From Lingula anatina (taxonomy: Eukaryota > Animalia > Brachiopoda), in NCBI GenBank assembly GCA_051362555.1, contig CM120649.1, forward strand, positions 6,448,001 to 6,512,000: a DNA stretch of 64,000 nucleotides, read 5' to 3'. A program made the translations under genes and the position numbers. The notes under the pieces are model-generated. The model was not told where the DNA came from. It worked only from the letters and a program-made list of their open reading frames with translations, and searched no databases. Below, piece by piece: positions 618-58,474 of the stretch. The first letter of the stretch is position 1; each line of letters opens with the position of its first letter.

Positions 618-1389
618 TGCTTTTATGACAGCATCCTCCTTGCTCAAGCAGCTCCTTTGATTTGTTATTGAGACACAATGATGTCATGAGAATTTGGTTG
701 GCTGTCTAAATTTAAATTACATTCTTGTTTATTCTTGTTTTATTCTGTATCTTGTATAGCATGTCTATTGCTATATCAGTGTTTTTGCTTTGGTACCATA
801 TATTAAGTACGGTCACTGTTTTCCATTTACCCATTTTATGTGAGTGATAATGTATTCAAGTGTTGTTAACTTTAAAATATGTGCATCACAACAGTGCAAT
901 GATGATTATTATTTTCATTTCAAACACTGGAACGCACGTTTTCTTTTTTTCCCACTCTGACTGGCACGCCTATATCTACTGGTGGCTGATTTTCGAATAT
1001 GTGCTGAATGCCGTAAATATAATGTTGGAAGCCAGGATGGACTGGTACTGTCATGCAGATAGGCTTTGATACCTAGAAAACCACAAAAACAATTCATTGA
1101 TAATAAAAACCTACATGTATATTTACAAATAGAAATTGTATTGCATAGATATTATATACTAAACTAGTAAAGTAAATGTGGTTAAAATGTGCATTAAGCA
1201 AGAGTTGTGACACAAATTGCCCAGCATAAATTGGATTTAATACATATATTGAGACTGACAGAAAGACTTCACCTGACAGGCAGAACATGCCTAGTTGTCA
1301 CTCGACACTATAATCACACGCTCTCTCTCACACACACACACTATATTTGAGTTTCAAAAAAGACACAAACAAATGAAATATATACGTAC

Positions 1390-1609
1390 CGCCTACAAAG
1401 TGCTTTGAGCAAACAATAGTTCGATCCCATTTCTCCTCCGATGTGATATCTTTCCTGTTTATCGCCTCCTTCCATAACCGTCGCCTTTCCTCAGACAACT
1501 TTTGCGTATCCTCGCCTTGACCTTTGATGATTGTCGGTACTTTATGGAAACTAACACCTTTCTGTGAACTCGGTCTATTGGTACATCCAAATATGCCACA
1601 TATTGGCAT
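1390..1609 (-). CDS. THAP zinc-binding DNA-binding domain, first coding exon; downstream exons not identified
   Basis: MPICGIFGCTN...SFHKVP...RRRLWKEAINR...VCSKHF has the C2CH THAP signature with conserved P, W and F. A GT donor (G|gtacgt) lies at 1389-1388. Confidence 0.8.
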
Positions 1610-1679
1610 GGCTGTACTTTTTGTACATGATAAAAAGCAACAAAATTCGTCACGCTTATATTACACTGTCCTGGGTATA

Positions 1680-5627: not shown

Positions 5628-6516
5628 TCATAAATCAGTATCTGCAAAAACATTTCTAAACATGGCAACAGGATATATCTCAGGTCTCACTTCTGGAGCA
5701 ATGCTATCCTCAAACTCCTTTTTGACAATGATTTCTGAGAGAAAATCCCTTTGCTCCTTCGTTCTAAGTGTAATTTCCCCAGCTTGAAATTCCTTTTTGA
5801 TAGTTATAAGTGAAACTTCTGTCCCAAAATCTTCAACTGGAAATTCTGTCTTAACAGACTGAAGTGAGACCCCTGTTTCATCCTGCATTACGGCAGGCTC
5901 CTCTTGAATAAATTTACTATGGTTCTCCGTCATCACTTTTCCTGTATAATTATGCTCATTTGAAATATCTGTAAGGATGACATACGGGCTCTTCCTCTCG
6001 TGTGGATTTTCTGAGGCTTGGATCCACTCCTTCTGCACATGATCATATTTGACAAACTCTCTTCATAGGACTGGTGTGTGGCCATTTTCTTTCCAGTGTG
6101 GCACATTTCATGCTGTTTACAATATTTTTTGATAAAGAAACCCTTTTCACAGTACTGGCATTTGTAAGGCTTTTCACCAGTGTGAGTCCTTTCATGCTTT
6201 ATACGAAGATTCTTTAAACTAAAACTCTTTTCACAATACTGGCATTTATGTGGCTTATTTTCACCAATGTGAGTCCTTTCATGTCCATTATAAATCTGTC
6301 TGATATTAAAACGCGCTTCACAATACCGGCATCTGAATGGGACTTCTCCAGTGTGGGTCCTTTCAGGCTGTATACATTTTCTTTTCTCCCGAAAGCTCAC
6401 TGGCACAGTGAACCCATCTCTTGACTGAGGCATCTTGTTTTTCTCATCAATGTCCTCAGATTCCATGCCAAACAGGTGGTCACTGCTGCCAGTGGAAAAC
6501 ATGTCAGCTTCCTCAC
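5628..6516 (-). pseudogene. C2H2 zinc-finger gene, terminal exon, with an apparent 1-nt frameshift near 6040-6062 (pseudogene or assembly error)
   Basis: Acceptor ttatgtag| at 6517. Three intact fingers with HTGEKP-type linkers plus one degenerate finger. An acidic tail with VKTEF/IKKEF/VKKEF motifs continues in another frame to the stop at 5628. Confidence 0.75.
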
Positions 6517-6766
6517 CTACATAACAAATTAACAACCAAAAAAATCAGTAGGCCTACTTGAGAAGGTTAAGAAGTCTTGTTTGTGATAAGAATACAAGTA
6601 CGGCAGTGTGTCAAATTTGCAGTGTGTGTCAGCAGTTGGAGCAGAAAAAAAAAGAAACACCACTCATTCAAACATCTTGCAGGGATTTACAACATGTATG
6701 AAGTTAAGTAAGTTCAATATCAGATGTTTTAACCTTTTTCTCCCTTCTTCATGGACATAGCATATC

Positions 6767-9327: not shown

Positions 9328-9552
9328 GGGTGCTTTCCCAGAGATTTAGATCGATCTAAAGATTAAGATTTAGATCGACCTAACTCCTTGGGGGTTCACG
9401 CTAAATTGCAGTCAGCCGAGCGGGCGCCATAGTTAATTACCCCCTTACAGTTTTTAGTAGGCGGGACAGACGCTTAAGCCGGCCAAGCTGACAGTAATCT
9501 AGTGAGACTCCCCACAGGGATAGATCGATCTAAAATCTATGGGAATGGGGTC
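9328..9552 (+). mobile_element. PIF/Harbinger (Tourist-like) MITE, family A, copy 1
   Basis: Flanked by TTA on both sides, with subterminal tagatcgatcta palindromes; the body is shared with four other copies. Confidence 0.85.
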
Positions 9553-12500
9553 TTAGATGAAGAACTCCAAGAAGGGGCTCTAGTACGAAAAAATGGACAC
9601 ACAGATTTTATTCCACGCTCTTTCTTCTTTTTTAAAACCTATTTTAATGTGTTTGTATTTATCTCTAAATCAGAACACACTCTGGTCATCAGCGACTTGT
9701 TGTAGAATGTCTCTGTTCATCCGATACATGTGCCATTTCTCTTCTTCTGTAATGTCATATCCCCCAAACTTTCGATACATATTGATAGCTGGCTTGTTCC
9801 AGTCAAGCACGCACCACATCATCCGTGCGCATTTCACTGCATGAAAAATCAGCTTTTATATATCCTGAAAGATGATCAAAAGGCCTCCTTTTATTCACCT
9901 TCTCACACCTTTCCTAGACCTTTCGTTTTTTTAGGAAAGGTGTAAAAGACGATCTTTTGAATGACTTTTGTATAAGCGAAAAGGTATACAAATGGCCCAC
10001 TTTTCTTTACCTTTTCTCTACACAAAAGATTAACTTTCATAAACCTTTTGATGTAAAAAGACGATCTTTTGCTTGAAGAAAAGGTATTCTCAAGTTCATC
10101 ATTCATCAGCTTTTTGCATGCTAAAAGGCATATGAATGATCCACTTTTCTCTACCTTTTCCTGACAAAAAGTCCAACTTTCAGATGCCTTTTGTGCAACT
10201 TTCAAGATACAAAAGATAACCTTTTCAAACCTTTTTATTTAAGAAAATACTGTATTTTTTCTTCTTTTGTTACGTATTTTAATGTAATATTTATTGCGGC
10301 AATTTAATAATATATTGATAAACAGAACAACACATGGTATAAATTTTAATAATTTATTCCATTATAACATTTTTGTGCAGGTTGTGCTTGTCTTTTGAAA
10401 GTTTTTGATAATCCAAGGAAATTGAATTTTCTTGTTTTGATAATCCAAGAAAGGCCCAGGAAATGTTCTCTAAATGTACTTTCAGCCAGATCCATTAGTC
10501 CTACTATATATGCGTAACTTCCCACTCTCGTGGGAGTAGTATTCCTGGAATCGTCTGTCAAGTGAACACTTTGCCTGCCCAAATCTTTGCCTTTTGCCTC
10601 CTGAAAAATAGGATGCATGTAATGATAAATGTTGTTTTGGGTAACAGTTCATTTTAATGCTAATCAAATATGATAAAAACAAGGGCAACTTTTTTGTCTA
10701 ATACTGATGTTAGAAGTATTTTCAAATTATGCCATCAAATGGCTTAAAAAAGAGATTTTACCTCCTTACTTTTTTTCCATATTTTTTGTTTCAGCTCATC
10801 CAGTCCTTTTGCTTGTTTTAGAACATCCTCCTACTTTTCAGATCTGTAGTATCTTTTAATGGCACCTAGTAAAGAAATAAAAAGAGTGAACTATTTGAGT
10901 GTAATATCATGCAAAAAGTTTTCAATTAGGGAAATATGAATAATGACATAACTACAAGTAATGATGAAAATATGCATTCATGATTACTGCTAGGCAACTT
11001 GATTGAGCCTTGCACAGAACTTAGATAGGCTCCTGTATTACATACCCCATTCTTCTCTTCCAATTTTTTTTTGCCTTAGTCCATCCACTTTGTTTGCTTT
11101 TATATGCTGTTCAGACAGCCTGTCTTTTAATAGCATCTGGAAAAGAAATAGAGGTTTTAAGATAGTGAATTCTTTTAGTGTAATATTATACAAAAAGTTT
11201 TCATTTTTGAAAATATGAATGCTGAAATAACTACATGCAATGATGAAGATATCCATGATTACTGCTCAGGGTTCATACAGCAACATAAAAGCAATTTAAA
11301 TGACTTCTGGGGCTCTTAATCAATAACTTTTCAATAACTCAATGCGTCTTACTGTCATTTTAAAGTTTACATAGAAAAGAGGAGCATCAATTTACACAAA
11401 CTTTGTATTTTAATGATAATGAAACATGAGAAAAAATTGATAGATTAAAAAGGGCATTCCCCCAGCATGTCTACATTCAGGTTAAAAACAAGGTTTGAAA
11501 TAATCATTCGACAAATTTCTAACTGATCAAATCCCAGAATATTTTAGGGAAAAATGATGAATACAAGCCCTTTCTAAGCTTAATAACAATTTCAAGTACT
11601 TTTTATGTCATAAACAGACTGAATACATGTACAAGGGGCAATACTAGATTCAAACACTCAAAGTGCTGTACCGGGGTATGAACCCTGCGAGTGAACCAGT
11701 GCATTGATTATATAACCCTGCCTGGAATTTAGGTCAAGGAATGTAGGTCGACTATATGGGATTAATACAGGCCAGTTATATACATGTACAGAATCTTTAC
11801 TAGTACGCGGGGCCGTACTTTGACGTAAACTTTTTGCAGTGTTCTAATATATAGGTCAGAGTGTTTGATTAACAACTGTTTCACGATCGTGATAACCTTT
11901 TCGGCGCGGTCTGTTCTCCGTGCATAAAACCCATCTTGGGCGTCCGTGACACGGTTGTTTGTTCCTTTAAATATGATTGATTCACATGTTATATTAGACC
12001 TACCTGATGCATTTACTCATTCTCTTCATCCTCGTCAGTTACATTATCGCCGCAACAATTGCCATCTTGCAAAGAAGTCGACCATTATCTTCTGTGACCG
12101 GCCTGCACAGTCTTTCAGTCCGCGCATTTTCAACCGCCTGGCCTTGCGCATGCGCAGATAGTCTGTAATGGGATATCTTTCGCGCCGATTCTCTAGCATT
12201 GACCTATAGCGCAGTATTAATGACAGAAAAGCGCGCACGGCAACCTTTTACTTCGTGTTTTACTCAAGACTAAAAACAGCAAGAGACAATAATATAGATC
12301 ACTAGACACGGGGCAGCTGGTCATCGTTTTACAAGGTAGGTGATATAGTGATTTCAGTACCTAATGTTCGCACAGTGTGTGTTAACACAAACTATAGCAA
12401 AGCATGCTTCTGTGATTAAAGCGGGAATCTTTCTCGAAGCACTACATGTTGCAAGGTAATTAAGTCGTCTCTCGAGAAAGGATCGAGTTATACTGAGTTT

Positions 12501-12691: not shown

Positions 12692-12915
12692 GACCCCATT
12701 TCCAGAGATTAGATCGATATAATTTAGATCGACCTAACTCCCTAGGGGTTCACGCGAAATAGCTGTCAGCCGAGGGGACACGAAAGTTAATTACCCCTTT
12801 ACAGCTTGTAGTAGGCTGGACGGACATTTAAGCCAGATTATCTGATAGTAATCTAGTGAGACCCCCCCCCCCCCCCCCGGGGATAAATTTATCTAAAAAC
12901 TCTTGGAATACAGCC
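12692..12915 (+). mobile_element. Harbinger-type MITE, family A, copy 2 (nested in the CACTA element)
   Basis: TTA TSD; termini gaccccattt / ggaatacagcc. Confidence 0.85.
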
Positions 12916-18003: not shown

Positions 18004-18218
18004 GACCCCATTTCCAGAGATTAGATCGATCTACTTTAGATCGACCTAACTACCTGGGGGTTCACGCTAAATAGCTGTCAGCCGAGCGGACACGAAAGTT
18101 AATTACCCCCTTACAGCTTGTAGTAGGCGGGACGGACATTTAAGCCGGATTATCTGACAGTAATCTAGTGAGGCTCCCCGCGGGGATAGATCGATCTAAA
18201 AGCTCTGGGAATACAGCC
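18004..18218 (+). mobile_element. Harbinger-type MITE, family A, copy 3
   Basis: TTA TSD at 18001-18003 and 18219-18221; near-identical to copy 2. Confidence 0.88.
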
Positions 18219-19590: not shown

Positions 19591-19611
19591 GTGTCACTTC
19601 ATATTTTTTTA

Positions 19612-22600
19612 TCAAAATGCACTCTCGCTTGCAACTTTCTGCAGAGTGTCTCCCTTCATGCAAAACGTGCGCAATTGCTCCTCTTTAGTTATATCACTTC
19701 CGCCTAATTTTTGGTACAGCTCGATAGCTGGTTTGTTCCAGTCAAATACTCTCCACGTCATAACCGCGCACTTTTCTTCGATAGCCGCCTGAAATATAAA
19801 TTCAACGTAATAAATATTAAAGCAGCTGAATCAGGATAAGGGTGTAGTGTGAGCTACTTGCTCAGCCGCTTTTTCCAATACAAAATGATGAATCTCTCCA
19901 CCCCTCCTTTTTAAACAATGGGATGAACACAAAGTATGGCCAGCTGATTAAAGTTTAAATTGGATGCTACGAAATGACCCAAATTGCAATAATCTAATAA
20001 CAAATCCAGTTTGTATGGACATCGTCCAAAGACATTTTAGCCCGATTGCATGTATTCACATTTGAAACCCATAGCTATATATGGCATGCTGCTGGATAGA
20101 TAATACATTGATTTATATACTTATTCGTTTCACTTAATCGCATATAAATCATTTATTGTCTAATAACTCGCAACGAAAAACACCAACCACCGTTTCCAAT
20201 ACAAATCATTTATTTCGTTAACCCTTGCTATGAGCTGTTGTTTGCTTGGCTGCGTTACAGAATGCGTACACACCACGCACTGACTGTCCTTCACAAACTC
20301 TCCGACTATAACCATTTACAAACTTCTCTTATTTCCTCTACTTCTGCTGTTTTCTTTTCAACCACCTTTTATATATTTCAATAAATTCTTTCGTTCCATA
20401 TTTGAACTATTTCATTTTTTATAGATATATTACCGAATGTGTAAATGCCCAGAATTTACTGTACATCAGAAACCACTATTTTCTAATGTCTTATCCCAAC
20501 TACTATCTCTTCTTTGTTACCAATTTTGTACATTTTACACTGATCTATGTTTTCTTCATTAATCATAATTATTTCTAAGCACATACCCTTTAATACTCCA
20601 ATTAACTTATTACAACTGTTCCATTTTGTGCCTTCTCTGATGTATTACTTTCTTGACCAAACTTCTATATCATTTAAAATATTCTTTGTTTTATATTTGC
20701 GATTTACTTGGACCTGACGCAGCAAGCTGAAAACAGCCTCGAATGAAATCTGCTCATCTCACATTTCCTTTTATACTATTGTGCAATGCACAATCTGCGC
20801 ATGTCAAACACCCCGCCCTATGAACTCATTTCCTCACCTAAATTGCTTCTCTAACACATTTTGCGTTGACTCGTTAAACGACAATAAATTCATTTATATT
20901 TACACTTTTTTTAAAATAAATTTTCATTACTACTAATGTACTTCTAATATTCATTTCTACTATGCATTATAATATAATGAAACCGATTTCACAATGCTTA
21001 CCTTGGCAACAGCCCTGAAGAGGGCAGTGCCTGTTCCTTTACCACGATAAGCCGATGCCACATATAGATCTCTGAGGTATACTGTTGGACCTTCTAGAGT
21101 CAAGTAGGTGAAATAATACAGCCCATAACCAATAATTTTCTTCTCAGTTTCACCTCGATTAGATTCTGTTGTTTCTGCTACTTTACAATAGAAGAAGGCG
21201 CGGGAACCGAACCCATGACTGGCAAGCTCTGCAAACATTGAAGGCTACAATTTTTAATATATATAGACTAATACATTTATCCCTTGATTCATCTATACAC
21301 TGCTAAATACAGTTATTGATTTATGCTAGAGAAAGCGTCAAGATCTTAAAACATATTTAAATGGTCATTTTAATATGTCTGATATGGTACCTTCATATGT
21401 AGTTTTTACACCCTCTGGATACTTTTCAAACTCGGTGAGTTCCTGTAACGAAGCAGAGATTTCTCGTATACAGTCTGTGCCAAATACTTTTCAAGTTACA
21501 GGCCATCCGGTCCACCTGGGTCTGGGGATCTACTGGCGGGAGCCCAAGGCCAATAAAATATTTAAATTAACACATTGAGGTTAAAGGCTGAATACAAATA
21601 CGAACGAAAACATTGGATTTTGAAAAGGTTATTAAAAAGACTTCAACAAGTAGCCTGAACATTTATAAAACGAACTGGAGTACAGGTTACAGCTGAAAAA
21701 ATATCCAGAAGACCGTTTGAAGTCTTTGAACCAGTAACTGACTGTTTTTCAGATATTTCACTTACAATTAGAATCTTTGACATACAATTAGAATCTATTT
21801 GTTGATTGCCTCAGTTTTCAGACATGCTACGCAGGTTAAGCCTCATTCTAGTGTAACAAACTGTCGAGGCTTTATATGACGTCACCTACAAACCATGTGA
21901 CGTTGGTAAGTGGTAGCACTGTGCGTTCATGTAAGTGCTTTGACGTTTCATTCGTCCAAAATAGTTAGATAAATAATATTACTTAATTGGTCGCCAAGAT
22001 CTGTAAAACGTGTACGACTTACATTTTACAGGCTCTCTATATACACGTACTATTATTTTTTTTTTTAAACATATGATTATGCAAAATATATACCTAGTTA
22101 AGAAAATAGGACTGAGGAACAGCAGAGGATGATACGACTATCATTTGCTAGTTAGCGATAGATATTTCGGTTCTCAATGCTTTCAGTTATACATTCTATA
22201 TACGTATATGGCTTTTTTTTTTTGGTGCACACGAGCAGCCTGCATGCTGTTAACTTTTTCAGGGTCCGTTTTCTGATCAGGTGGTATCATTAATGTATTT
22301 CATCTGTTGCTATGCTCTTTACATTTCAGCAAGAAATGAGTTTCAGTTTTAATTTCAGCGCATTAGGAGCACTTGACGACTTTGGCAGAGTTTTTGGTGA
22401 TGTGTAGTGACCCCATTCAATTCCCAGGTCTTGATCAGTAACACGCATTTTCGCAAGAGTTTTTATTTCAAATTCAGAGGCTTTCATTGAGATTAAAAAC
22501 ACTAAAATGTTATCAAACTGGTGCATGAACCGACACATTTAAAGAACACTAAACACTATTAAATACAACTATATGCTACAAGGTGGTGACGGAGTACACA

Positions 22601-22844
22601 GTTTTGCCAGGATGCGAATATTTTTAGCCTCGAGATTTCGTAACACAGGGTAGAATGAGGTCCTACATTGTACCTGCGGAAGACAGCTAGTAGCGCTTTG
22701 CAGCTATTTTGTCGCACTGTTCACCTCGTCAACGTTGACTGCTATAGTTTAGTTGTCTTATAAGAAATAAGCAATATTCACCTTAATCAACCCATGTATA
22801 GCAGCACAGTCCTCCCTCTTTGCGCCTCGAATGACCACTGACAT
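19612..22844 (-). CDS. SAT1/2: Diamine N-acetyltransferase paralog B, intact 172-aa ORF. Exons 22844-22782, 21442-21391, 21228-21002, 19788-19612
   Basis: 63+52+227+177 = 519 nt, in frame, with GT-AG introns. GNAT acetyl-CoA motif YRGKGTG, plus DWNKPAI. Confidence 0.92.
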
Positions 22845-23092
22845 ATCTGGAATGATGTGGCGACGATGGGGATGAGGTTTGACCCAGTTTTCTAAATGAT
22901 TGTGAAATATAGGTTATCATGAATCCTATACAGTATTCTTTAACAACCTTGAACTTCGGTCTAGTAAATCTCCGACTCGTTACGAGCAATGCCTAGTCAT
23001 GGTTTTTAAAGAAACGGCCCGTATTACAAAAACACTTAAAGTGAAAATTGCCGTGTGCCAAAAAAATGCTGTAGCACAGTTTTTATCTCATA

Positions 23093-23305
23093 GGCTCTAT
23101 TCCCATAGATTTTAGATCGATCTATCCCCTCGGGGAGTCTCACTAGATTACTTTCAGATAATCCGACTTAAATGTCCGTCCCGCCTACTACAAGCTGTAA
23201 GGGGGTAATTAACTTTCGTGTCCGCCCGGCTGACAGCTATTTAGCGTGAACCCCCAGGGAGTTAGGTCGATCTAAAGTAGGTCGATCTAATCTATGGAAA
23301 TGGGG
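23093..23305 (-). mobile_element. Harbinger-type MITE, family A, copy 4
   Basis: Reverse complement of the body of copy 3. Confidence 0.85.
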
Positions 23306-24116: not shown

Positions 24117-25267
24117 TTACGGGAAGAATCAATAAGTCAGATCCTGGGGATCCCTTGGATGTTTCGTGTTCCTGGCCAAGGAAGCCGCTACGGCATGGGT
24201 GTTTATGGGTGAAATGCCAGCCGGATCCAAGACGTTATACATGTAGTACGCGCCATCGATAGCTCGGAGCCGAGGCAGATAATGCTAGCCGAGCCGAGAT
24301 AATGCTACACCCTGCGGGTCGGGGCAATTATGTTTATGTTCTTATCCCTTTCAGCTCCGTCCGTCAGAAGCGTCGTTTTGTGTGCAGCCACTTGAAAACG
24401 AAAAGAGACGAAGAGACAAAGGACGTCCTGATCCTCGATCACGATTCTCCTCTAGGAAAGCAGAGAATACTTCCCATAAGATAGACGGGACTAGGGCGAA
24501 GAAAATGCGTGGAATGCACCACGGAAGATTAACCTTGCTCTTTCCGAGCCTGGAGCCAACAGGTTCCTGATTGGCGGGGTTTATTGCCGCCAAGCTGCCA
24601 AGTTACTTGAAACGGCAAAAGTATGCTATAGTGTAGAGGTTTGTTAAGTAGTCTTTGTAGCTCAGGGGGGTTTAACATCATGGAATCTTTATACATACTT
24701 TTCTTTTCTCTTGCAACAAAAGACCCTTTCCCCCCTCTTTCTATCCTTATTCTTAGCTTCTGACGTTTCCGCTGGGTATTATGAGATAATCTTTCCTGCG
24801 GCGACAAGTCTGCTACTAATGTTATTAGGGGAAACTTCTAATGTCGTAAGAATATTGCAGCAGTGATACGTCCCATATCACTTGAAGCCTTCACGAAAAC
24901 GGGACGTTTCTTTCCGGTGTCCTGATTCCTTGCTACATCCTTTATTTAAACACCATGTACCGGTTTCACACATACACAAAAAAAGTTAAGTCGGGTTCCC
25001 TGGCTAAGAACTTAGCTACCAATGTTACATGGTCACATGCTCACATCTTACCCTATCCGAAACAGTGTTATAGCACTTCCAAGGAAATCCCGGTCAACTA
25101 AGCCCGGGAGCTGACTTAAGTTTTTTTTTTTCTTCTTATGAAACTAAGCCATGTGCCTTCGCATGCCGCCATGAAAATACGAAAAAAAATGATACATCTT
25201 TCCGTCGTCTTCTACATCTCTATTCTAATGACAAAGTTTTACTTCCCCGAATGTTGTATTATAAAAA
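24117..25267 (+). promoter_or_regulatory. Immune-type promoter/enhancer of the putative cytokine: STAT (GAS) and NF-kB sites plus a TATA box
   Basis: STAT-type: TTACGGGAA 24117-24125, TTCCAAGGAA 25077-25086, TTCTTATGAA 25133-25142, TTCCCCGAA 25243-25251. kB-type: GGGAAACTTC 24829-24838, GGGACGTTTC 24901-24910, GGAAATCCC 25083-25091. TATAAAA at 25260-25266. Confidence 0.65.
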
Positions 25268-25358: not shown

Positions 25359-27216
25359 ATGAACGGTAAGATCAAAGTGTCAATATTTACGCTAATCATT
25401 AACTGTTATGTATAACTTTCTTTTGCATGTTGTGCGGAAACAAACTCATGGTAAACCTTAATCGAATTTTAGACACTCGTACTGTTATTTCGATCTGACA
25501 AATCATTCTCTTTACATGTAGGAGCAATGTTGGTCTTGATACTGGTGCAAGTATTAGGGACTGTGATACAGCTATCTACACCATTCCCGTTGCCGTCCGG
25601 TAATCTGACCAGCCTTCGATGGAACATGCTATGTAGCCGAGGCGTCAAATTGGCACATATCGCACCAGAACCTGTCACAATATCGAACGAAACACTGGTT
25701 AACTTAGAGGAAGCGCTTAACGTATTTTTGGACTACACTATCCAGATATCTGATCTGTCGCAAAGCATCAAGGAAAGATGGGTAAGGGCACTGCGCAGAT
25801 TGTCATAAATCGTTTTGAATGTATTAAAGAGCAAAAAAATTGAAGGGATTTTCTTTTCCTCACAATATTGTTTCATTGAAAAGGTCTATCTAGTAGTTTC
25901 GGTAAATCAATTGGCTCGTTGTACGAGGAGAGGCAGTTTTTCTTAAAATTAGAATTATTATTTGAGAAAGTGATCTAGAGATAGAAAGTAGTTCACTTAT
26001 TTTATAGTTGCCGACGACAGAATTATCATTTCGGTATGTAACGGTAGCTGTTACCAGCATTTTGAACAATACAAGGTAGTTCTTTTTGTATCTTAGACTA
26101 CATTCCCACAGATTTTTAGATCGATCTATCCCCCTGGGGAGTCTCACTAGATTGGTGTCAGTTTAACCGGCTTAAATGTCTGTCCCGCCTACTAAAAGCT
26201 GTAAGGGGGTAATTAACTGTAGTGCGCGCTCGGCTGACAGCAATTTAGCGTGAACCCCCAGGGAGTTAGGTCGATCCAGATGGATCGATCTAAAAGTGTG
26301 GGAATGCAGTCATAGTCTTGGGCCATCACAGTGTTAATTGAATATGGCTCAAATTGTGCCCACATTCAAAATATTTCGATCAAATGAACTAGCTATAGGC
26401 TTTTAATTTTAATGTTTTGGATGACCTATAAACATTTGTGACCTTATGCGTTTCCAGTTGAATAATAGATATTACAGCGATGTGGACATTTTCAACAAAA
26501 CACTGAAATCCTTTAAGTCACCACTGTCGCTGCCGAATCGGATTGATAACGAGGCCGAAAGACCAATGGTCAATGAAACGGGCATTTGCAATGTAAGTTG
26601 AAACCAAATGCAAAATTGAAAAAAAAGCTCCGATATGTTGACTTTGGTGTAGAATAACGCCAGTCGAAAATCTTTGTTTAAACTTTATAGAGACAGTTTA
26701 ATGTTATATTTCTTTCTGTTAATTTCTTCATTTTTCATGTTTGAAATGGATTTAATTGTCTTTGGTGGTTAGTAATTTTTGATTATGCAGTACTATGTAA
26801 CCTATTTCCAGGCTTCTTGCGCAACTTTTCTGAGAAATATATCAGAATCTATCCGAAAAGAGACGATGCACTTGGAGATCATTCGTGAACAAGAATATAC
26901 CGAATATTTGAGACACGAGCAAACTGTAGATAGCACAGATGACAATCTTTTAGAAAACCTAGAGGGTCTCATGTACGACATAGTCTGTGAAATAAACCAC
27001 TTCATAAATCCAACAGTTAATCCTCTGGTAAAGTTATACAGCCAAGAAAACATCACCGACAGATGGAAGAAACCGCTGACAAAAACTGAAAGGTACGCCA
27101 GAGATCTGAAGTTCATTCACCATGTTCACACTCTAGTTGCCAGTGTTAAGATCTTCTTTTCTTATGTTATGGAGGAGTTGTTTAGTTCTTTGGGAAATCC
27201 GTGGTTGATGTACTAA
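25359..27216 (+). CDS. Secreted 268-aa glycoprotein, putative Unpaired/IL-6-family four-helix cytokine. Exons 25359-25365, 25522-25781, 26458-26592, 26812-27216
   Basis: 7+260+135+405 = 807 nt, in frame. All donors are gtaag and intron phases are 1,0,0. Signal peptide MNGAMLVLILVQVLGTVIQLST; 7 N-glycosylation sequons; W-x3-C, IVCEI and ERYARDLKFI motifs. The gene model is solid; the family call is inference. Confidence 0.75.
26096..26311 (-). mobile_element. Harbinger-type MITE, family A, copy 5 (in cytokine intron 2)
   Basis: Reverse complement of the family A body; termini gactacattccc / gggaatgcagtc. Confidence 0.85.
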
Positions 27217-29817
27217 TGCTTTTGCTTTGGTGACACCCACGTGGTCACACAAATATTGGTGCCAGACGGATACACTTGTTTGCAATGCGTTTGATCAAAC
27301 TGTGATATGTTTTAAAGATTAAATTTAGATATTTACTTTTTGTTTTATTATATGGATTACCCTGAGTATGTTTACTCTGAGGGTCTGATTGGTGCTATTA
27401 GGAAAGTATCAGAGTGATGTTTATTGAAGATTAGAATATATAGACTATCAGGTGTACGCATCTACGGGTAAATTGTTGACAGATCCAATTTCGTTTTCGC
27501 CTTTTTTCATTTTGAAACATCTTTTTTCAAACACGGAAATTATATACTTTTAACTTTATATTATTGTGATAAGTTACTACAGGGAAAATTTAATCGTTAC
27601 GTTATGATTTTTTTACCGTTATTCGGTACTTATTCAAATATATTTTCGAGCTGTTTTATTGATTATAATTATAGACCTACTGATATTCTTCATGGTTTTA
27701 TGGAAAATAAAATTCAAAGTTCACCTCATGTTACCCTCCATACTGTTCGCCAGTGTTGAATTGGAGATTAAGATGGATATGATCGCACTTATACTTTTAA
27801 TATAATTATCTAAAGACATACATAGGGCTAATTAACGCTAACGCAACAGATTAAATTACGAGCGTCATACTTTCTGATCTCTAATAGCATAAGGGATACT
27901 AGCTTTTGGTGACAACGAAACTTCTTTGTGGACAGAAAAAAACCGCGACTCACGAAAATCATGTCCTCTAATTCCTATTACAAAAATCAACGCCACGCTC
28001 AAAAGTGAGTCACTGTGATCAACAAAACTTCCTATAACACTATTTTCACTTCAATGAAAGATGATTTAAGGATTCTGTCGAGAATATCTTTGGGGACCAT
28101 TACCGCCCATTTATGCTTCAGCATGATTATGCTACCCACCCAACGCAACAGTAAGTTTGTTATATGGGAACCAGATCCAGACCCCCCCCCCCCCCCCACC
28201 CCCAATTGGCCAGTTCAATCCCTAGATCACAACCTCATTAAATATGTGTAGGATATCTTCAGAAATGGATAACTAAGGGATAACCCTCCAAAAATGATTT
28301 CATATTATCTTTCTGTGGAACGCCATCACTGCGCAGCAAAACTTTTTGACTCAACACAATCGCTTCAGGTGGTTTTTCCAATCCGCAGGATACTGTACAA
28401 GATACCGAAAGATCTTGATTTTTTTCCTATGGAAAGTTTATTCGTTGATGGTACAAGCAGTAAATGTTTCTGAATAACTCCTTTTAGGAGATGAATAAAG
28501 AACATTCATGACCTGATTTTCTGTACCACGTACTTCACCCATTGCGTTAGGGGTGACACTTTTTTTGCAAGAGAAGGATAATATTTCAAGACGACAAAAG
28601 AGTAAAAAATAATTTCTCCTTAGATACTTTCAAGTATCTTTTTTTTTCACGAATTCTCAAGAGATATTTGGAATAAAGTCGAAATATTTACCAGTGAATA
28701 AAGTTCACCATGAATGTAGCATATCAGTAAAATTAAAGAATAGAATAAATTCTTAAAATATCAGATGCTTTTATATAGTAATAAACACAATTTACTTTAA
28801 CGTATTCCACTTGAACGTAAACAGTATATAGGAAATTTATCTAAAAAACCCTTTGTCTAGAGCCCCCCCCCCCCCCCCCCCTGCTCCCAGAAACTTCTTG
28901 TATCATTGTTATAAACCGCTGTACTTTGAACAGGGGTTTTCTTATGGGTATTAATTGACTGCACATGTTACATATTTGTATATACTTTACGTTGCATGTA
29001 CATGTATATTAGATAACGTGCAATTGGTTCTGCCACTTATCATATCAGAATGTTTAATACTTGAAGCCTGTATGAAGAATTCTGGCAACATTAAATCTTA
29101 TAGGACACTTAATTTTATAGGACAAGTATTGGGCAGTTTCCTTTTTTCTTTTTCATTTTCTTATTCAATGTCCGGAACTCACTTAGTTCGAAAACCACAA
29201 AACACACTTAATTTTCGTATTTGAAAAGTCAGCATGCAGATATTCAACCATATATCCCGTATAACACATATGTGAACAATTTTCGAAAATCCTGCATCGT
29301 CTCGAGGCCATATATTACGGGGCCTGTAAGAATGTGTTTTTCTGTTTTGCCGTACTATCAGTCCTACGTCCACTACCATACAGTCGCTCCCGTCTCACAA
29401 CTGCCATGTACTGAACTGGACTTTGTACATCGAGCTTTGTATCCTAGCTTCACACCTGTACCGCTGTGCTCTGAGAGACGGACAATTTAATTATTCCGTA
29501 AAAGGATCACCTAAATGGACTCCTGCGTCCGACACAGACAATTGCTTAACTTCCTCAACATTGCGTACACGGGACTTTACTCCCATTCGCAAGCCCTCTT
29601 CAAAGTCGCTCCTTACTGTGAATTCCTTGATAAATGAAGTTATCTTGAAAGTACATGTGTAAACTACACAGAGTGTTGAACAGAGCATCACGATGAAGTT
29701 TCTGAATAGATGGTTACTTCAGGGCAAAGTGTGGCAATAATGCACAAGCAGTCAAGTGTTGGATATCACTTCCAAAGAGACCCAGTTCTTCATAGCAGAG
29801 CACGTATATGCCTATGC

Positions 29818-30903
29818 TCACAAATTGGACGGTTCAGTTTCACAACTTGGACAAGAGTCACGATATTGAGAAGCGCAGCACATGCGCTGTATTCGCCTCC
29901 GGAAGCTTGCCCTGAACACGCAGTAAATGAAGAAATTACAGGAACAGTTTAAAGTGGCCAACATGTTGCACGCGACGTTAAAGTGCGAGTGACTTACGCC
30001 GAGATATCCGACAGTGGCGTACAAAACGTGATTTGTAAAAACCGGCAACTCGCACACGATGTACACCACCAGAACCGCGACTAGCATGATCGTGATTTGG
30101 GTGTCTTCGGCAGAAGCCGCGGCGTCCGACCCAAATCCTTTCTGGAGCTGGTCCCTTCGCTTTGAGCCCTGCCTCAGGGACACGATAAGGCGCAGGTTGA
30201 AGAAGAACAGCGCTGCCAAAGGGAGCAGGAAGGCCAGGGCAATCTGGGTCCCAGTATGGAGAGTGCGGCCCAGCTGTGTCTCTCCGATACCGTAATGGAC
30301 GAGAACCGGTTCCATTTCCCTTGTACATGGGTCAAACTGCTCAACCGTCCTCTGCCTCCAAAACCATGGCAGGTTGACCAAAACTGCACCAATGGCTGTG
30401 ACGACGATCATTACACACGTCCGCGTATTCGTGCACCACGAAACGGCTTTAAAGGGCCAACAGACGCCTATGTATCGATCCACTGCCACCAGAACCACAA
30501 ACCAAAGTCCCAACGTCTGCGCCATCATCCCAAACGGGTACTCCCACGGCTCCATGTACGGCCAAGCGTCCTTGTATTCCTTAAACAAGCCTGTGTAGTC
30601 GTAGATAGAGCGGAAGGATTGGAATAGAAGACAATGGGTAAGGTAAAGGATGTCTGCCACGGCCAGAGCAAGGAGAAGATAGAACGAAGTGCATTTTTTG
30701 CGTTCCGGCCAAAACACCACGAAAGACAGGACGTTCCCGACGTAACCTATTACACATAGTGTGCCGACAACGACGGTGTCCATATAAAAGGCGGTGGCAG
30801 CGTAATTAACGCTTGACGTACAGTTATCGTTGGTGACGTTGTCAACATGTGATGCATTATTATCTTGTACCGTTAGCGCTATTGCGGAGCCATTGTTGTC
30901 CAT
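29818..30903 (-). CDS. Class A peptide GPCR, FMRFamide-receptor-like, 361 aa, single coding exon
   Basis: Seven hydrophobic segments; GN in TM1, LAVAD in TM2, VDRY, CELP in TM6, NCSCNFFIY in TM7; N-terminal sequons. ATG at 30903 follows an in-frame TGA, and a 5'UTR acceptor lies at 30973. Confidence 0.9.
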   Translation of the reverse strand: MDNNGSAIALTVQDNNASHVDNVTNDNCTSSVNYAATAFYMDTVVVGTLCVIGYVGNVLSFVVFWPERKKCTSFYLLLALAVADILYLTHCLLFQSFRSIYDYTGLFKEYKDAWPYMEPWEYPFGMMAQTLGLWFVVLVAVDRYIGVCWPFKAVSWCTNTRTCVMIVVTAIGAVLVNLPWFWRQRTVEQFDPCTREMEPVLVHYGIGETQLGRTLHTGTQIALAFLLPLAALFFFNLRLIVSLRQGSKRRDQLQKGFGSDAAASAEDTQITIMLVAVLVVYIVCELPVFTNHVLYATVGYLGVSHSHFNVACNMLATLNCSCNFFIYCVFRASFRRRIQRMCCASQYRDSCPSCETEPSNL

Positions 30904-36080: not shown

Positions 36081-36823
36081 TGAAATGAATAAGAACTTTT
36101 ACATGCATAGCGTTGGGCAAAAATCGCTTTCTGTTAGAATACATGAAAAAAGCAAGAATTAAGTACCTTATGTGAAAACACTTGTCTCCAAAAAAGGTAA
36201 CCTAGCTAGCACATGGATGACCTTACCTTGATGCAGAATCTCGTGTTTTGTGGAAATTTATGCTGAAAGTCTTACAGAGCAGCATCACAAACTGAACGTG
36301 CGAACAAAGTTCACCTCATTCCCGGGATGACAGGCTTTAAAAACAGCCACTGAGGGCCTAGGCGAGCAAAACCAGACGGCGCCATTGGAATACACTTTGT
36401 TTTCCAACTGGGAAAAAGATAAATCAGTTTTTTTTCTGCTATGAATCACATTTGCTGTTAATCCAAAAATGCATTAATTGAAGGACTTTTATCTTCACAT
36501 TTCCACATTTTGTGTTCATTAACGTTCCGATTTATACACATTACATAAAAGCCTGTGGCTTCGCCCACATTGCATAAAATACATTATTCAATGACGAGAC
36601 TTCAGTCCATTTTCAAGAGATGCCGTTTTCGAACGTCGCTGTCCCAGAAGTAACCAGTATAATCAATTCAGTTTTATATTTATTATTTGAAAGAGCGTGC
36701 GAGGGAAAACTTACTATAGTGGGACAAAATATATTTAAAATTGCTTTTATTATAAGATCGCCATACTTCCACATGGTGTTCCAATTTACCGGGGTAGGTG
36801 CGTTTCGGTGTTTCCATTGGCAC

Positions 36824-37195
36824 AGTGTTATGGTTTGGGCAGGCATAAATGGCAATTTCCAGACAGAAATCATGGTGATTGCAGTTATTGGTGGAAATTT
36901 GACTGTCCAGTGATACAGAGATGAAGTACTAAGAACAGGTGTTGTTCCATTCTTGCATCAATACCCAACTCAAAGCTTGCTTCAGCAGGACAACGCCCGT
37001 GACCATACTGCCAGGATAGCATAGGCGTACCTGCTTCAGGAGCAGATCCAGACTCTCCCGTGGCTAGCGTTTAGACCAGACATGTCTCCCATTAAGCGTG
37101 CCTGGGATGAATTGGGCAGACGACTTGATTACCGCCACCAAAGCCTGATACTATCATAGAGTTAAGAGCTGCACCGATGGAAGAATGGAAAAAGA
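36824..37195 (+). mobile_element. Tc1-family (DD34E) transposase remnant
   Basis: SVMVWAGI...NLT...Y..EVL...QQDNARDH-(34 aa)-PDMSPIK RAWDEL, with two in-frame stops and the catalytic E changed to K. Confidence 0.88.
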
Positions 37196-41517: not shown

Positions 41518-44500
41518 ATGGGTCGTTCAAGGAGTCGCAGCCGATCGTCTACAAGACACAGACACAAAAGCAAGCACAAAAAACACAGATCGAGGTCCCG
41601 ATCGCGAGATAGAGCGGCGAGACGGAGTAGGCATCGATCGAGGTCGAGAGACCGAGACAGACGATCAAGGTAACATCAATGTCAGCGGGCTTGGTCAGGC
41701 TCTGCCTTTTTCTTATCTAAGAAAAGTATCAAAATACTTATGGCTCTGGTTGTATACATGCGTTTTGAGAAGAACTTTGTGCAACATGAGGAGAATTTTT
41801 ATCCCTTTGATATTTTCATTGTTTTATCATATTTGTCATTTGACAATGAAGCCGCGTGTGCTTTTGACTCGACTGGTATTGTGTAGGTATTGTTGTCCAA
41901 GGTACGAGTGCGCCCTTATTATAGGGGGACTACTTCTCACATTGCCAGTAGCTTGTCATTTTCATTAGTCTTTAAAGTTTCAACCCATCAAAAATTCCTT
42001 TACAATGAAAATTATTTGCTTGGTTTGTGGAATTGGTGGTGGTTCAGTTGGCAAGGGTGCAACTTTTTGACTTGATATTAATTTGGATATTGGAAACATT
42101 TTAGCAGTTGTGGTAAGTTTGAACCATAAGAATACTTGCAAATAAAATTTTACATAGTCATGGATTAATTTTATCCTTATTCTTAATTTGCAGCTTTTGG
42201 TTTTGTTAACATTCTTACTTGTCTCTTTCTAGTTGCTTTTGTTCCAAATGCTTTGCAAATTGTTTGCTTAGAAACAACCATAAATGTACTATTTATTTGA
42301 CAGTGGGTTTACTTATACAATATATATTTCAGTACTGATACCTGTTTTATTTTTATTTAAATTAATTTGTTTATTTTCCCCAGAAAACGCTCTTACTCCT
42401 CAAGCAGTTCTGACAGTGATCTTGATGTTCTTGCGCCAACCAAAGTATTGGAAGAAAAGAAAAAAGAAGATGAAGAAAAACAAGCAGAGATGGAAAGGTT
42501 ACGGTTGGAGTAAGTACAGTAGGGGTGTTAATACCAGTTTTTGAGTTTCCAATGAAGACATGCCTGCATAATGTAGAACATATTATCTTAACAGGTTATT
42601 TGATTGCAATTCTATCCCATGCTTACATAAAGCATTTTTTTTTTTTTTTTTTTTTTTTTGGCTACATAATTAAATGATCTTAATTGCATCAAAGTAAAGT
42701 ATGTGTGTGAAGATAAATCTGACAAGATAAAATACTTCATTATTTATGTTAACCAAATTAGTTAATGTGATAGAATTATGAAGTGAATTTACTGCTTAGC
42801 TGCATGTCTTATTTTTGAAATGTTCATGTTTTCTGTGTTTAAAATACTTTTGTAAAACCATTAGCGATATGCTGTTAATTATATCATAATGACTTTTTGT
42901 TTGTGTTTATGGCCATATTTAATTGCATTTTTAATATTTTAGGCGTCAGAAAGCTTTAGAAGAAAAACTCATAGAGGAAGAAGTAGCAAAACGAGTGGAA
43001 GAATTGGTAGCTAAACGAGTAGCTGAAGAGCTAGAGAAACGCAAAGATGAAATTGAAGCCGAGGTGCTACGAAGAGTAGAAGAGGCAAAGCGCATCATGG
43101 AGAAACAGATGTTAGAAGAAATGGAAAAACAGAGGGCCGCGGAAGTGGAGGCACAAAAGCGTAAAGAGGTACTGCTAAGTTCTGAAGTTTGTTTAGGGGG
43201 GTGGTGGCACATCCCACGCGGGGGCATCAGATAACAATGTGACAGAGACCCCCAATATTTCATCACACAGTCACAGCCAGTGAAGTTAGCAAAGTAGATT
43301 AAATCCTGAGTCAAGTTTTGTATAGTTGTACCTTAAGTTGTATTTAGAATGATAAGCTTAGTTTCTTTTAAACTGCTTTAGGAGGCAGGGATGACATTCT
43401 TTCCCAGATTTCAGGGATTTTTTTTTTCTCTGACCCAATCATATCTCTTTGCATATGGGGCTCATTTTGGTTACTCGGTCTCAGGCATTGGTTTTCAGTA
43501 CTTTTAAAAGTCTGAAAAGCCAATGAAAGAGAAGCAATTTAGGCACTTAAACATTGAAAAACTTGAGTAAAGAAGCAGCTAGGATATGAAATCATGGATT
43601 GTATATAACATAAATCGAAAGTGAGAATAACATAAAAGATGATAATGTCTGTGACATATTCCAACAAACACATGTTACATGAAACTGCCCATGTAGGATG
43701 TATGACACTAGCCAAGTTCAGCTAGTCACATGAATTCTATACGAAAAAAACATGGGAGAAGTTCTTAATTTCGTAACAGCTGTGCAGTGTGCCACCACCT
43801 TCCTTCAAGTACTGGCCGTGAAAGTGCAATGAGACTGGCTGCTTGAAAAAAGATGCCCAAAAACTGCTGTTGTTCTGCCAGACCCATCCCCTCCCCTTTC
43901 CTCGCCCCTTGTCATTTCTTTTTCACCCCTTTGGACTAGCAGTATGAGCTGCCTTGCTCTGTTCTCTACTAGTGTAGCTGGCTCACTTGGTTAAGATTTT
44001 AAAAGGAATTTGAAATGCAGAAAGTTTTTTTAAATTTTTTTAATTGTTGTTTTTCTTACCCTTTGTTCTTTGACATGTTTATGTTTGCCTCTGATATTAC
44101 TTGCTTCTACTCAATCATTTTCCTAAATATTAAAAGGGTATTTTGAAGCTAATCAAATAAGTTCAAGAATGTATTGTCTACAGTGTAATATCTTTGTTGT
44201 TTGTTTGTATGGGGGAGGGGAGGGGAAAGGGTGTACAAGTCAGATTGCATGCTTTTTACCTTGAAAGATAACTCGAACATTGGATATATCCGGAAATTAA
44301 TATATTTGTGTGTTGTATATATGTCCCCTGGACCCCCATATGGCACTTGCATTTCCAGAATTTGTTTTGAAAGTTTCACTTTCATCTTTGAGAGTTACAG
44401 CTTACAAAGTAGCATTTGAAATGTAGACTTTCATGCATCAAAGGACAACAAGCTTATCCCTTGGACTAAACAATTCCAACGCACAAAAGCAGACTTCATT

Positions 44501-47933: not shown

Positions 47934-49300
47934 TTAGAACTGACATCAAAATTCGTCGGTGTATTTTCATTCCTGTGTAACAAAAGAATCCCCAGGTAAG
48001 CACTCTGAATCTTACACTTATTTTCATTCTTACATACGTTGTCTCTTGTTTTTGCTTTCTCTTTTTTCATTTTCTTTCTTTTCTTTTCCACCACCCTCAC
48101 CCTTCAGCTTTTAATCGGTGGGGCGCATTTGCACCCCTACCTTTAATAATTACATCTTTTCAGTTAAATTTCATTTTGTTATTATAATTTATTAGCTTTA
48201 TTGCATAATTATCTTTACTTTCCCCGTGACGAATATCCCGGCGACTCCCTTCGCCACAAAGATTTCATGTAATTATTAAACAGAGCAAAAATGCCTCAAT
48301 TTCTGTGCTATTTTAAATACCATGAACACCTCTCACTGACGCTGGATGAGTTCATCTTCAATTTCTGAACAGTCTCCTTGGGGTCATGCGATGTGGAGTG
48401 GGGTAAAATGACATTGATATTTGTGTGCTGTTTCTGAACGAAATAACTGTCGAGCAAAAACCACGGCAACTTCTGTTAGTTGCGAATTCACCTCAAAGAC
48501 ACGTTGTGCTGACTGTTTCTCCTTCGATATATTCAATCTTGATAAACAGTAGAAAACATTCAAAAATAATACTTTTCACGAAATTCGGTTATCATATTTC
48601 TCTATGTTTTCTTGCACCAAAGCAGAGATATGAAGTTTAAATGATATAATCATTGGTTTTATATAATACAAACTCGGCAAAACTAACAAACGAAGAATAA
48701 ATAATAGTATTCAGAATTCTACTGTAATGATTCCGACGACATGAACGATTTTATGTCATTGTTCAGAACAAGTAGAGTCGTTTACATTGCGCATGGCACA
48801 ATATCATTAGGGTCCATTGTGCTTTGATGCACTGTCACTGAAGGCCCGTTTACAGTTGAAATGGATCGACCCAACTGTGACTGCCCGTCTAAGTAGGCTG
48901 GCTCTCTGAGATTGGTCGTACTAAGTGAGGTCAGATGATCTTAACTGGTTACGTGCATTTGATACATTTACGGCGCCCAAGTTGTTTAATGGTTCAGTGA
49001 ACGCATGCGTTAAATTACAGACATTGTTACGAGAACAGTACCTTCCACTGAAGTCATTTCAGCGAACTGTTTAGGCTGTGAAAAATATTGAAGATGCTAT
49101 AGAGTCTTAAGGAAGCTTCCGATCGCTGATGCGTCCCACTAGTGCCAAAGAAGTAGTATTGATTACTACAACCATGTGACTTCGTGAGAATGATGTAATC
49201 TCTGAGATACATGGAACTAGACACACCCTCCATATTAGATGAGTAATTGCAAGCAAACTAACACTTCAAAATCTGAGAAAAAATTGATATCTTCCACACA

Positions 49301-50009
49301 ATGGAAGACAGACATGATACTGGTCAGCGAGAATATCGTCTGTGGAACATTTTCATCTTGGTGATATATTTGACCGGTCAACGATGCGTCGGTCAAGTGT
49401 TGTACAATCATTTTGAAGTGACCAAGGGAGCCGTTCTGACCTCACCTTCCTGGATGACGGCCAGCTCTAGAAGTCCCGTAGCCTGCGCTGTGCTGTGTAG
49501 CCGGACGCCTGAATGCCGTTCATGTAACTTTTATAAAAACACACCAAGGGGAGAGGGTAAATATTGTGAAAGATGCACAGCTTATTCAATAAAATTATAG
49601 TGTGATTAAATTTAAAGGGGCTAGTACCGCCTGCATTGAACAGAAACCCGTGTTGCAAAACTATACATTGAAATAGTGACAGACGTGTCCGTGCTTTTAT
49701 CTGTTAAAAACAATTTCTGTAAAAAGAAAAAAATCTTGAATCTAGTGTGATCATGTTTCAAGTGAGGATATCGTCACTATTACAGTTTGTATGCGAACGA
49801 AAAATCAACCAGACCAAATCCAAATATTTTTGCACTTCCACCTGTTACAGAAAATTGCCAGCTGTATACCCGAAAAGCTGCAAGCAACGATTTGGTACAG
49901 CATGACAGTGGTTTATATTTCACACATTTGTCCAGGGGTGAGGTGAGGTCTTTTCTTTAACATGAATGTTACTCTCTTAATATATTTACATTAAAATTCA
50001 TTTATGTTT

Positions 50010-50062
<53 letters not shown>

Positions 50063-52034
50063 TTTATTCGAGCATTAAATGTGACAGTTACATTTGTTAG
50101 CCCTCTATACTACAAATATATAAATAAATAAATAGTTATACATCACTATGGATTACTACTTATACAGTGTTTAAGAATATTAATTACAGCGTATACGTTT
50201 TAGTACAACTCTGGATAGTGGTTGGAAAGATATTCATGTACTGTAATAGGGGGTGGTCGGCTCAGGCTTTAGTTAAAATGAGAGACTAAGTGAGTGACAA
50301 GATTCCGTAAAGGCGAACCCGAAGTAAAGGAGAAACAAAATATAATAATATTTTTATAACCCGCTTAATATAAAAGTATTTAATTTGTCTGTTTCAGGAA
50401 GTAACAGATTGTAATGAGTCGGGTAAGTTAATGCTGCGAACTGGTTTCTTCGGGCTACGCGAAGTTTGTTTTGACTTAATCCACGATGTATTTGTACATC
50501 TATCTAATGAGTTTTCCCCTTTTGCAAGTACACTAATAATAAATGGCAGCAGCCGAATATGAATGAAATGCCGAATACGAAAGTTTGAAACTGTTGACCA
50601 TTTGGTATTTATATGCACTTAAAATTGTTGGACCTCGTCCACTTGAACGACCAGACAAAATGCACTCTTATAGGCCCTATAACTAGTGGGTGTCACGTAG
50701 GTCCTCTACAGACTATACATGTAGCCCTAACATTTATAAAACGTTGTTTTCTTAACAGACTACAGAGGAATGATTACCATCCAAATAAACAAATTTGGAA
50801 TGAAGGACGTTTATTGCGACAACGGATGGATTATTGTGATGCGAAGATACAACAGTACGATGGATTTTCAGAGAAACTGGACAGAGTATAAAAATGGCTT
50901 CGGTGATCCACGTGACCAGTTTTGGATGGGAAACGAGGCTCTCCACGCGTTAACCAATCAGGGAAACTATTCCATGCAGATTGACATGTTGTCTTGCAAT
51001 GGAAACACCTACTACGCCAGATGGAACCTATTTCGGATTGAAAACGAAACCCAGAAGTATGCCGTAGAAGCTATCAGCGTAGAATCTTTTAACACATCTT
51101 CTGACTCTAACCTTGATGACGTGCATGGCAGAAGATTTGGCACGTCCCCATTGGTGACTGTAGTGAGGAGAGAGGTAAGCTCCATTCTTTTTAAAACCTA
51201 GGACAAATAATTTTTTTAAATTTTATCCAACCATGGAAATTTGCTGTTGTGATGCCGTGTTTTAGGCCGTATTCAAAACAGCGGACTAACTAGTCCGAGG
51301 ATCAGATTTGGCGACCCACTTAAAAGCTTGCTGTCTAATCCCTTAACAGACATTAAGGGTAATTAAAAAAATTAAGATTTCAAATAAATGATTAAACAAT
51401 AACGCTTGAAATATCTATGCCATGTATGCGTGAAATTCAAATGAATCCAAATTGTATGTGCAATGCAGTGAGAGGGATTGTAATTGCGATGCTTTTAACA
51501 CACTTTTTAACAGTGCCAGAACAAACCTGGTCTCAAAACATAATGCTTGTTTTGTACAGTTGTATCTCCATCGGCGACTGTTTTCTATGTCTGCTCTTCT
51601 GTGTAATGGATGGATACGTCACGTACGACTCTATTTAGTTTCTATTATTCTAATAAAGAATAACTCTGATTTATCATATAAAGATATTTTGACACCACAA
51701 TAGAACCAGAACGTCACTGCTACAGTGCCGCCGGAATCTTAGTTTACTTACTCTGCGCGGCGCTGCTGGTTGTCCCTGCGCCCTGTCCCAATATATAAAT
51801 ACGGGAATTACAATACAGCAATACATTACCTGATTGGCGATCATTTCCCCCTTTTCAGGCGGAGGGTGGTGGTTCAACCATTGTGCCCGGTGGCATCTCA
51901 CGGGGTACTATCCCGACTGCGATATGACGGAAAGACGAGAGAAACGAATGAAATTCGTTCCCATCACTAATACGAACTGTGATCGGGGGTGTCTACTCCA
52001 AGCTGCTACGATGAAGATCCGGAGAAATGTTTAG
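49301..52034 (+). pseudogene. PAN/apple + fibrinogen-related domain protein, copy 1, frameshifted by a 7-bp deletion in exon 4. Exons 49301-49556, 49851-49942, 50398-50422, 50759-51174, 51859-52034
   Basis: Signal peptide; PAN-type CAVLC...CRSCNF; FReD DVYCD..GWIIVMRR..FQRNWTEYKNGFGD..FWMGNEALH..GGWW. Exon 4 is 416 nt against 423 nt in copy 2. Confidence 0.85.
50010..50060. repeat. (ATA)n microsatellite in an intron
   Basis: Direct inspection. Confidence 0.95.
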
Positions 52035-58450: not shown

Positions 58451-58474
58451 TACAGTATGTATTTACTACCGATA

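Follow-up and report, generated by a model that had tools for sequence, protein, structure and literature searches.

Which molecule activates JAK/STAT signalling in a brachiopod? A BLAST screen of this phylum found STAT in Lingula, and IL-6-family cytokines are reported in vertebrates only (PMC13203501; here and below, published sources are cited for those parts of them that were available). Homologs of Dome were found in 48 invertebrates, and Upd2 homologs are annotated in Drosophila only (PMC5385356). Among publications outside subscription papers, no description of this kind of ligand from a brachiopod was found, and the available parts of PMC13736523 and PMC3296744 contain nothing on one. 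A 64,000-nucleotide (nt) stretch of the Lingula anatina genome (contig CM120649.1, positions 6,448,001 to 6,512,000; hereafter the window) carries a gene on its plus strand that is a likely candidate for this missing signal. An earlier note on the window had read this gene as a divergent ligand of a Domeless/gp130-type receptor. The part of that proposal which placed the protein among long-chain helical cytokines is supported by language-model features, predicted helix layout, introns and promoter, though not by a confident three-dimensional model. Its assignment to the IL-6/Unpaired family is not established, given that the gene has four exons, no Cx9C signature and no Pfam match, and that its top clusters in the ESM Atlas carry the growth hormone (GH)/prolactin family.

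A four-exon gene for a probably secreted protein

The gene consists of four exons of 7, 260, 135 and 405 nt, which join into a frame of 268 codons. As the earlier note had claimed, these exons appear only as fragments in a list of open reading frames (ORFs) and the assembled gene is clean: the three introns (156, 676 and 219 nt) all have GT-AG boundaries and lie in phases 1, 0 and 0. The first coding exon of 7 nt with its phase-1 donor is likewise borne out by the gene model; its coding status is not common to the database records of the relative described below. The pattern ATG-4nt-GTRAG occurs three times on the plus strand of the window. An alternative acceptor for intron 3 at 26791, which lies 21 nt earlier and would yield a protein of 275 amino acids (aa) with six sequons, was rejected because the Lingula relative aligns without gaps only to the acceptor at 26812.

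Kyte-Doolittle window means reach 2.4-2.5 at residues 1-16 (residue numbers refer to the 268-aa spliced protein), and no comparable segment exists elsewhere in the protein. This N-terminus is likely a signal peptide, and the product, judged by its sequence, is likely secreted. Length and signal peptide agree with what is expected of long-chain class I helical cytokines (150-280 aa), and these are the first two properties by which lamprey IL-6 was sought (bioRxiv 10.64898/2026.04.02.716188). Seven N-X-S/T sequons are present, which is more than shuffled sequences give (mean 2.8, P 0.011), as are four cysteines (residues 40, 133, 137 and 193). Short motifs that had been listed for the spliced protein were recovered, with PFPLPS at residue 23, WNMLC at 36, IVCEI at 191 and RYARD at 228; LEEAL begins at residue 64.

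A related protein in Lingula anatina

When exon 4 was used as the query, a single protein among 159 candidates was matched (E 2e-46). This 260-aa protein (P0001) and a 264-aa version (P0002) are the two members of the cluster of L. anatina LOC106160740, an uncharacterized protein (XP_013392864.1) that has been assigned no name or function. Alignment with the whole gene model gives 177 identities in 264 positions (33% divergence) and is colinear at every junction. Because a Lingula protein matches both exon 4 and the whole model at these levels, the gene is confirmed as real, beyond what chance would produce. No further relative was recovered by homolog searches or by a profile search of protein collections.

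The pattern of conservation is uneven, with identity of 77% in the predicted helices (97/126) versus 55% in loops (59/107). All four cysteines, three of the four tryptophans (Trp36, Trp89 and Trp219) and the CEI and RYARD motifs are retained, whereas the relative has six sequons rather than seven and reads WNMPC in place of WNMLC. P0002 carries Asn-Gly at positions 2-3, as does the spliced window protein, and the unspliced DNA reads differently there; the junction between exons 1 and 2 is therefore supported. However, P0002 has leucine at its first codon and P0001 begins at the second methionine, so that a coding 7-nt exon is not established for LOC106160740. The mature protein would be identical from either start.

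Similarity to long-chain helical cytokines

A feature search of the ESM Atlas with P0001 gave scores of 0.90-0.94, with 198-216 of 256 features shared among the matches listed, and nine of the ten clusters listed carry Hormone_1, IL6, LIF_OSM, CNTF, IL11 or IL12. Most members of these listed clusters belong to the chordates, arthropods or molluscs. Exon 4 of the window gene alone, which excludes the signal peptide, retrieved the same families in nine of ten listed clusters (0.85-0.92, 178-203 features shared). Profile methods gave a different picture. Pfam assigned no family to full-length P0001 (E up to 10) or to exons 2 and 4 of the window gene, and the Unpaired, IL6, LIF and CNTF profiles all went unmatched for P0001, a null result that is limited by the tendency of HMMER filters to drop weak matches. 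Sequence searches of the PDB returned no match. Similarity to long-chain helical cytokines is thus seen at the level of language-model features (0.85-0.94) and not by sequence hidden Markov models (HMMs).

AlphaFold2 was run on the Lingula relative with two sequences' worth of alignment, and the secondary structure was then mapped onto the window protein. Both runs agree on an order of signal, helix A, long loop, helix B, short link, helix C and helix D, and the model of the mature protein adds short helices in the AB and CD loops. At low confidence, the predicted helices A to D span 34, 33, 24 and 35 residues, and they are separated by an AB loop of 43, a BC link of 8 and a CD loop of 25 residues. 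In cytokines with up-up-down-down topology the AB and CD loops have to be long and the BC link short, which this spacing fits, and a CD mini-helix has been described for IL-6 (PMC7378365).

Intron placement provides a further point of comparison. After Trp89, where predicted helix A ends, comes intron 2, while intron 3 precedes predicted helix B, and therefore exon 3 would correspond to the predicted AB loop. Genes of the IL-6/gp130 family similarly place this loop on its own exon. IL-6 and G-CSF have a cysteine at residue 3 of the exon that encodes helix B, and the window gene has a cysteine at the same place. In GH and prolactin genes, too, a very short first exon ends in phase 1 and the later introns lie in phase 0, and G-CSF shares this phase pattern, so the pattern supports the long-chain class and not IL-6 in particular. 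The earlier note had given a first coding exon of about 7 nt for IL11, and print agrees, as the first intron of IL-11 in fish and mammals lies 7 nt from the start (PMC3271213).

Taken as a group, the vertebrate IL-6/gp130-family cytokines and G-CSF (IL-6, IL-11, LIF, CNTF, CT-2, IL-27p28 and IL-12p35) resemble the window protein in language-model features, size, signal peptide and predicted helix layout. The Domeless ligands of arthropods (Unpaired 1-3 and Aedes Upd-like) are secreted and glycosylated, as the window protein is likely to be, and they are likewise highly divergent; arthropod-dominated clusters occupy Atlas ranks 2 and 3 for P0001. No match to the Unpaired profile of Pfam was returned for the relative or for exons 2 and 4. 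Aedes Upd-like is induced by infection and signals through Dome (bioRxiv 10.1101/2025.09.21.677592).

Promoter and expression

The region upstream of the gene contains a TATA box and three STAT-type palindromes, the most distal of which overlaps a kB-like 9-mer (Table 1). Three such sites within one 200-bp bin occur in only one of the 319 bins of the window (Markov P 0.0018, calculated post hoc). Directly 5' of the promoter lies a transcribed multi-copy repeat (about 24950-25130), which is present once in the window and differs from its further copies at the distal STAT-type site. In the likely 3' untranslated region (UTR), ATTTA motifs are not enriched (three seen versus 3.1 expected).

Expression was assessed in eight RNA runs (X1-X8), of which 6-26% each was sampled. 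Exon or 3' UTR reads occur in four of them (X2, X5, X7 and X8) at a depth below 1.6, and those of X2 and X5 match the sense strand; reads with 84-90% likeness may stem from an allele or a paralog. Such low expression at rest is compatible with an inducible cytokine and does not prove one.

Nearly all RNA reads at the locus come instead from an element within intron 2, outside the mRNA, that resembles a miniature inverted-repeat transposable element (MITE). This family of about 215 bp with long terminal inverted repeats has five copies in the window (79-88% identity; the others at 9331-9558, 12709-12909, 18021-18212 and 23088-23290) and is abundant in RNA reads.

Table 1. Positions in the window of the candidate cytokine gene and its associated features
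Feature	Position	Strand	Remark
STAT-type palindrome TTC-N4-GAA at 25077, overlapping kB-like 9-mer (minus strand, 25083)	25077..25091		weaker, at the edge of the stretch under multi-copy repeat reads
STAT-type palindrome TTC-N4-GAA	25133..25142		
STAT-type palindrome TTC-N3-GAA	25243..25251		8 nt 5' of TATA box
TATA box	25260..25266	+	99 nt 5' of ATG
Coding exon 1 (7 nt, Met-Asn-)	25359..25365	+	phase-1 donor
Exon 2 (260 nt): likely signal peptide, N-terminal arm with Trp36 and Cys40, predicted helix A 58-91	25522..25781	+	ends at Trp89
MITE-like inverted-repeat element, intron 2	26096..26311		inverted arms
Exon 3 (135 nt): predicted long AB loop, short helix, Cys133	26458..26592	+	
Exon 4 (405 nt including stop): predicted helices B 135-167, C 176-199, CD loop, D 225-259; Cys137, Cys193, Trp219	26812..27216	+	
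Likely 3' UTR, with ATTAAA at 27318 and AATAAA at 27706	27217..27711	+	X7 and X8 have sparse reads as far as about 27680

Weighing the assignment

The language-model features, the predicted helix layout, the placement of introns and the promoter together make it very probable that the protein is a long-chain class I helical cytokine, a fold class that is itself well known. That it works as a ligand of the Domeless/gp130 type, in the manner of IL-6 or Unpaired, is a less secure step, and we consider it likely. A number of observations weigh against these assignments. With regard to the Atlas, the two queries are relatives and hence not independent, shuffled proteins reach a score of 0.9 in 4-10 of 100 cases, the recognition value for exon 4 (2207) falls under the bar of 2300, and family shares within clusters are mostly below 35%. 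The structure prediction that had been suggested as a check on a four-helix bundle did produce four long helices and long connections between A and B and between C and D, but the two models (pLDDT, the predicted local distance difference test, 37 and 44; pTM, the predicted template modelling score, 0.30 and 0.34) are too poor to show a bundle or to permit a comparison of folds in three dimensions. Similarly, the claim of amphipathic helix-like segments holds against shuffled sequences for helix C (P 0.012) and not for helices A (0.085), B (0.063) or D (0.13). The promoter test was made post hoc, and its two most distal motifs touch the repeat-covered stretch. At the sampling given above, no reads from the gene were found in X1, X3, X4 and X6, and among the matches listed from all eight runs none spans an exon junction, so that the RNA support anticipated for the junctions did not materialize at this depth (<1.6).

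Other points bear on the IL-6 and Unpaired families specifically. Arthropod Unpaired proteins have W-x-NPC, LCE and RxxRD motifs, and WNMLC, IVCEI and RYARD of the window protein may be their counterparts. The seven sequons and the lack of detectable sequence similarity set the window protein apart from the IL-6/gp130 family. IL-6 genes are split into five exons by an intron in the signal region and three more within the domain (bioRxiv 10.64898/2026.04.02.716188), whereas the window gene has four exons and two domain introns, and no intron interrupts the region of helices B to D. The IL-6 signature, printed for halibut IL-6 as Cx9Cx6GLx2Yx3F (PMC3271213), is not found in the window protein, which has Cys133-x3-Cys137 and no GL. 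By the features examined, exon count and cysteine signature, the gene is not IL-6 proper. The site III hot spot of IL-6, Trp157 (PMC7378365), has no assignable counterpart either, as Trp219 lies six residues before predicted helix D.

The strongest competing explanation, though an unlikely one, is that the protein is a long-chain helical endocrine hormone resembling GH, prolactin or leptin, which acts through a different class I receptor and not as an inflammatory cytokine of the IL-6 type. Hormone_1 (GH/prolactin, Pfam PF00103) is the commonest family among the top Atlas clusters, and in both searches it is carried by the clusters ranked first and third (13-56% of members), which do not carry IL6. 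The exon phases are compatible with this layout as well, and Drosophila Upd2 has been discussed as leptin-like (PMC5385356). Nevertheless, no HMM match to this family was obtained, and the window protein has no cysteine after residue 193. The disulfides of GH and prolactin involve helix D and the C-terminus, where such residues are lacking here. Heavy predicted glycosylation, STAT- and kB-type motifs and near-silence in the eight runs would also suit an inducible cytokine better than a hormone.

Slightly less probable still is a lineage-restricted secreted glycoprotein unrelated to cytokines, for which the language-model match would reflect a signal peptide and four amphipathic helices and nothing more. 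The restriction of detectable relatives to Lingula, the absence of a Pfam family and the low confidence of the AlphaFold2 models would all be expected of such a protein, yet exon 4 without the signal peptide still returns cytokine clusters, and loop lengths, intron placement and promoter agree independently. Moreover, lamprey IL-6 is likewise invisible to BLAST (bioRxiv 10.64898/2026.04.02.716188). Finally, it is highly improbable that the gene is a duplicate of LOC106160740 that has fallen silent or is decaying: sparse reads (zero in half of the runs) and the failure of protein searches to return the window protein itself are in keeping with this, but the 268-codon frame is unbroken despite the divergence, the splice sites are canonical, every cysteine is kept and conservation is concentrated in the helices.

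Proposed function and ancestry

As a long-chain cytokine, the product would be secreted and glycosylated after signal cleavage near residue 22, and would fold as a four-helix bundle. A disulfide between Cys40 and Cys193 could anchor the N-terminal arm where helix C ends, and a second might form between Cys133 and Cys137. The ligand is proposed to dimerise a receptor of the Domeless/gp130 type, which would lead to STAT phosphorylation and switch on the JAK/STAT pathway. Nearly silent at rest, the gene would be induced through NF-kB, probably by injury or infection, and subject to feedback from STAT.

A broader proposal, which we rate at even odds, is that the gene is the brachiopod member of an unnamed, bilaterian-wide family of IL-6/Unpaired-type JAK/STAT ligands, descended from one ancestral gene with the vertebrate gp130 cytokines and acting as a feedback cytokine that NF-kB and STAT can induce. 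Common ancestry is suggested because the tiny first exon, the AB-loop exon and the helix-B cysteine are shared with vertebrate gp130 cytokines. If this proposal is true, the ligand is as old as the receptor-JAK-STAT module, which would overturn the view of the ligand as a vertebrate addition. The gene and its annotated relative make the question of the missing ligand testable in a lophophorate, and they add a phylum to the comparison of introns and cysteines by which a common ancestor of Unpaired and IL-6 has to be judged.

Other features of the window

A spliced GNAT acetyltransferase gene (about 19610-22850, minus strand), presumably a diamine (spermidine/spermine) acetyltransferase, is divergent from the cytokine gene. 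Downstream of the cytokine gene and convergent with it is a single-ORF G-protein-coupled receptor of the rhodopsin family (29818-30903, minus strand; 7tm_1 E 7e-24, Srw), the exact sequence of which is absent from the protein collection searched. Two tandem plus-strand genes (49277-51201 and 54247-56361) each begin with a signal-like segment and encode both a PAN and a fibrinogen C-terminal domain (PAN was scanned on the first copy and fibrinogen on the second), and judged by these sequences are candidate immune lectins. The window also contains an exon of an ARGLU1 homolog (42935-43234, plus strand, E 8e-19) and fragments of a C2H2 zinc-finger gene (5628-6544, minus strand). Three further ORFs were picked out by eye, and these look like a long interspersed nuclear element (LINE) reverse transcriptase (58451-60453, plus strand), a THAP domain (1328-1660, minus strand) and a Tc1/mariner fragment (36578-36957).
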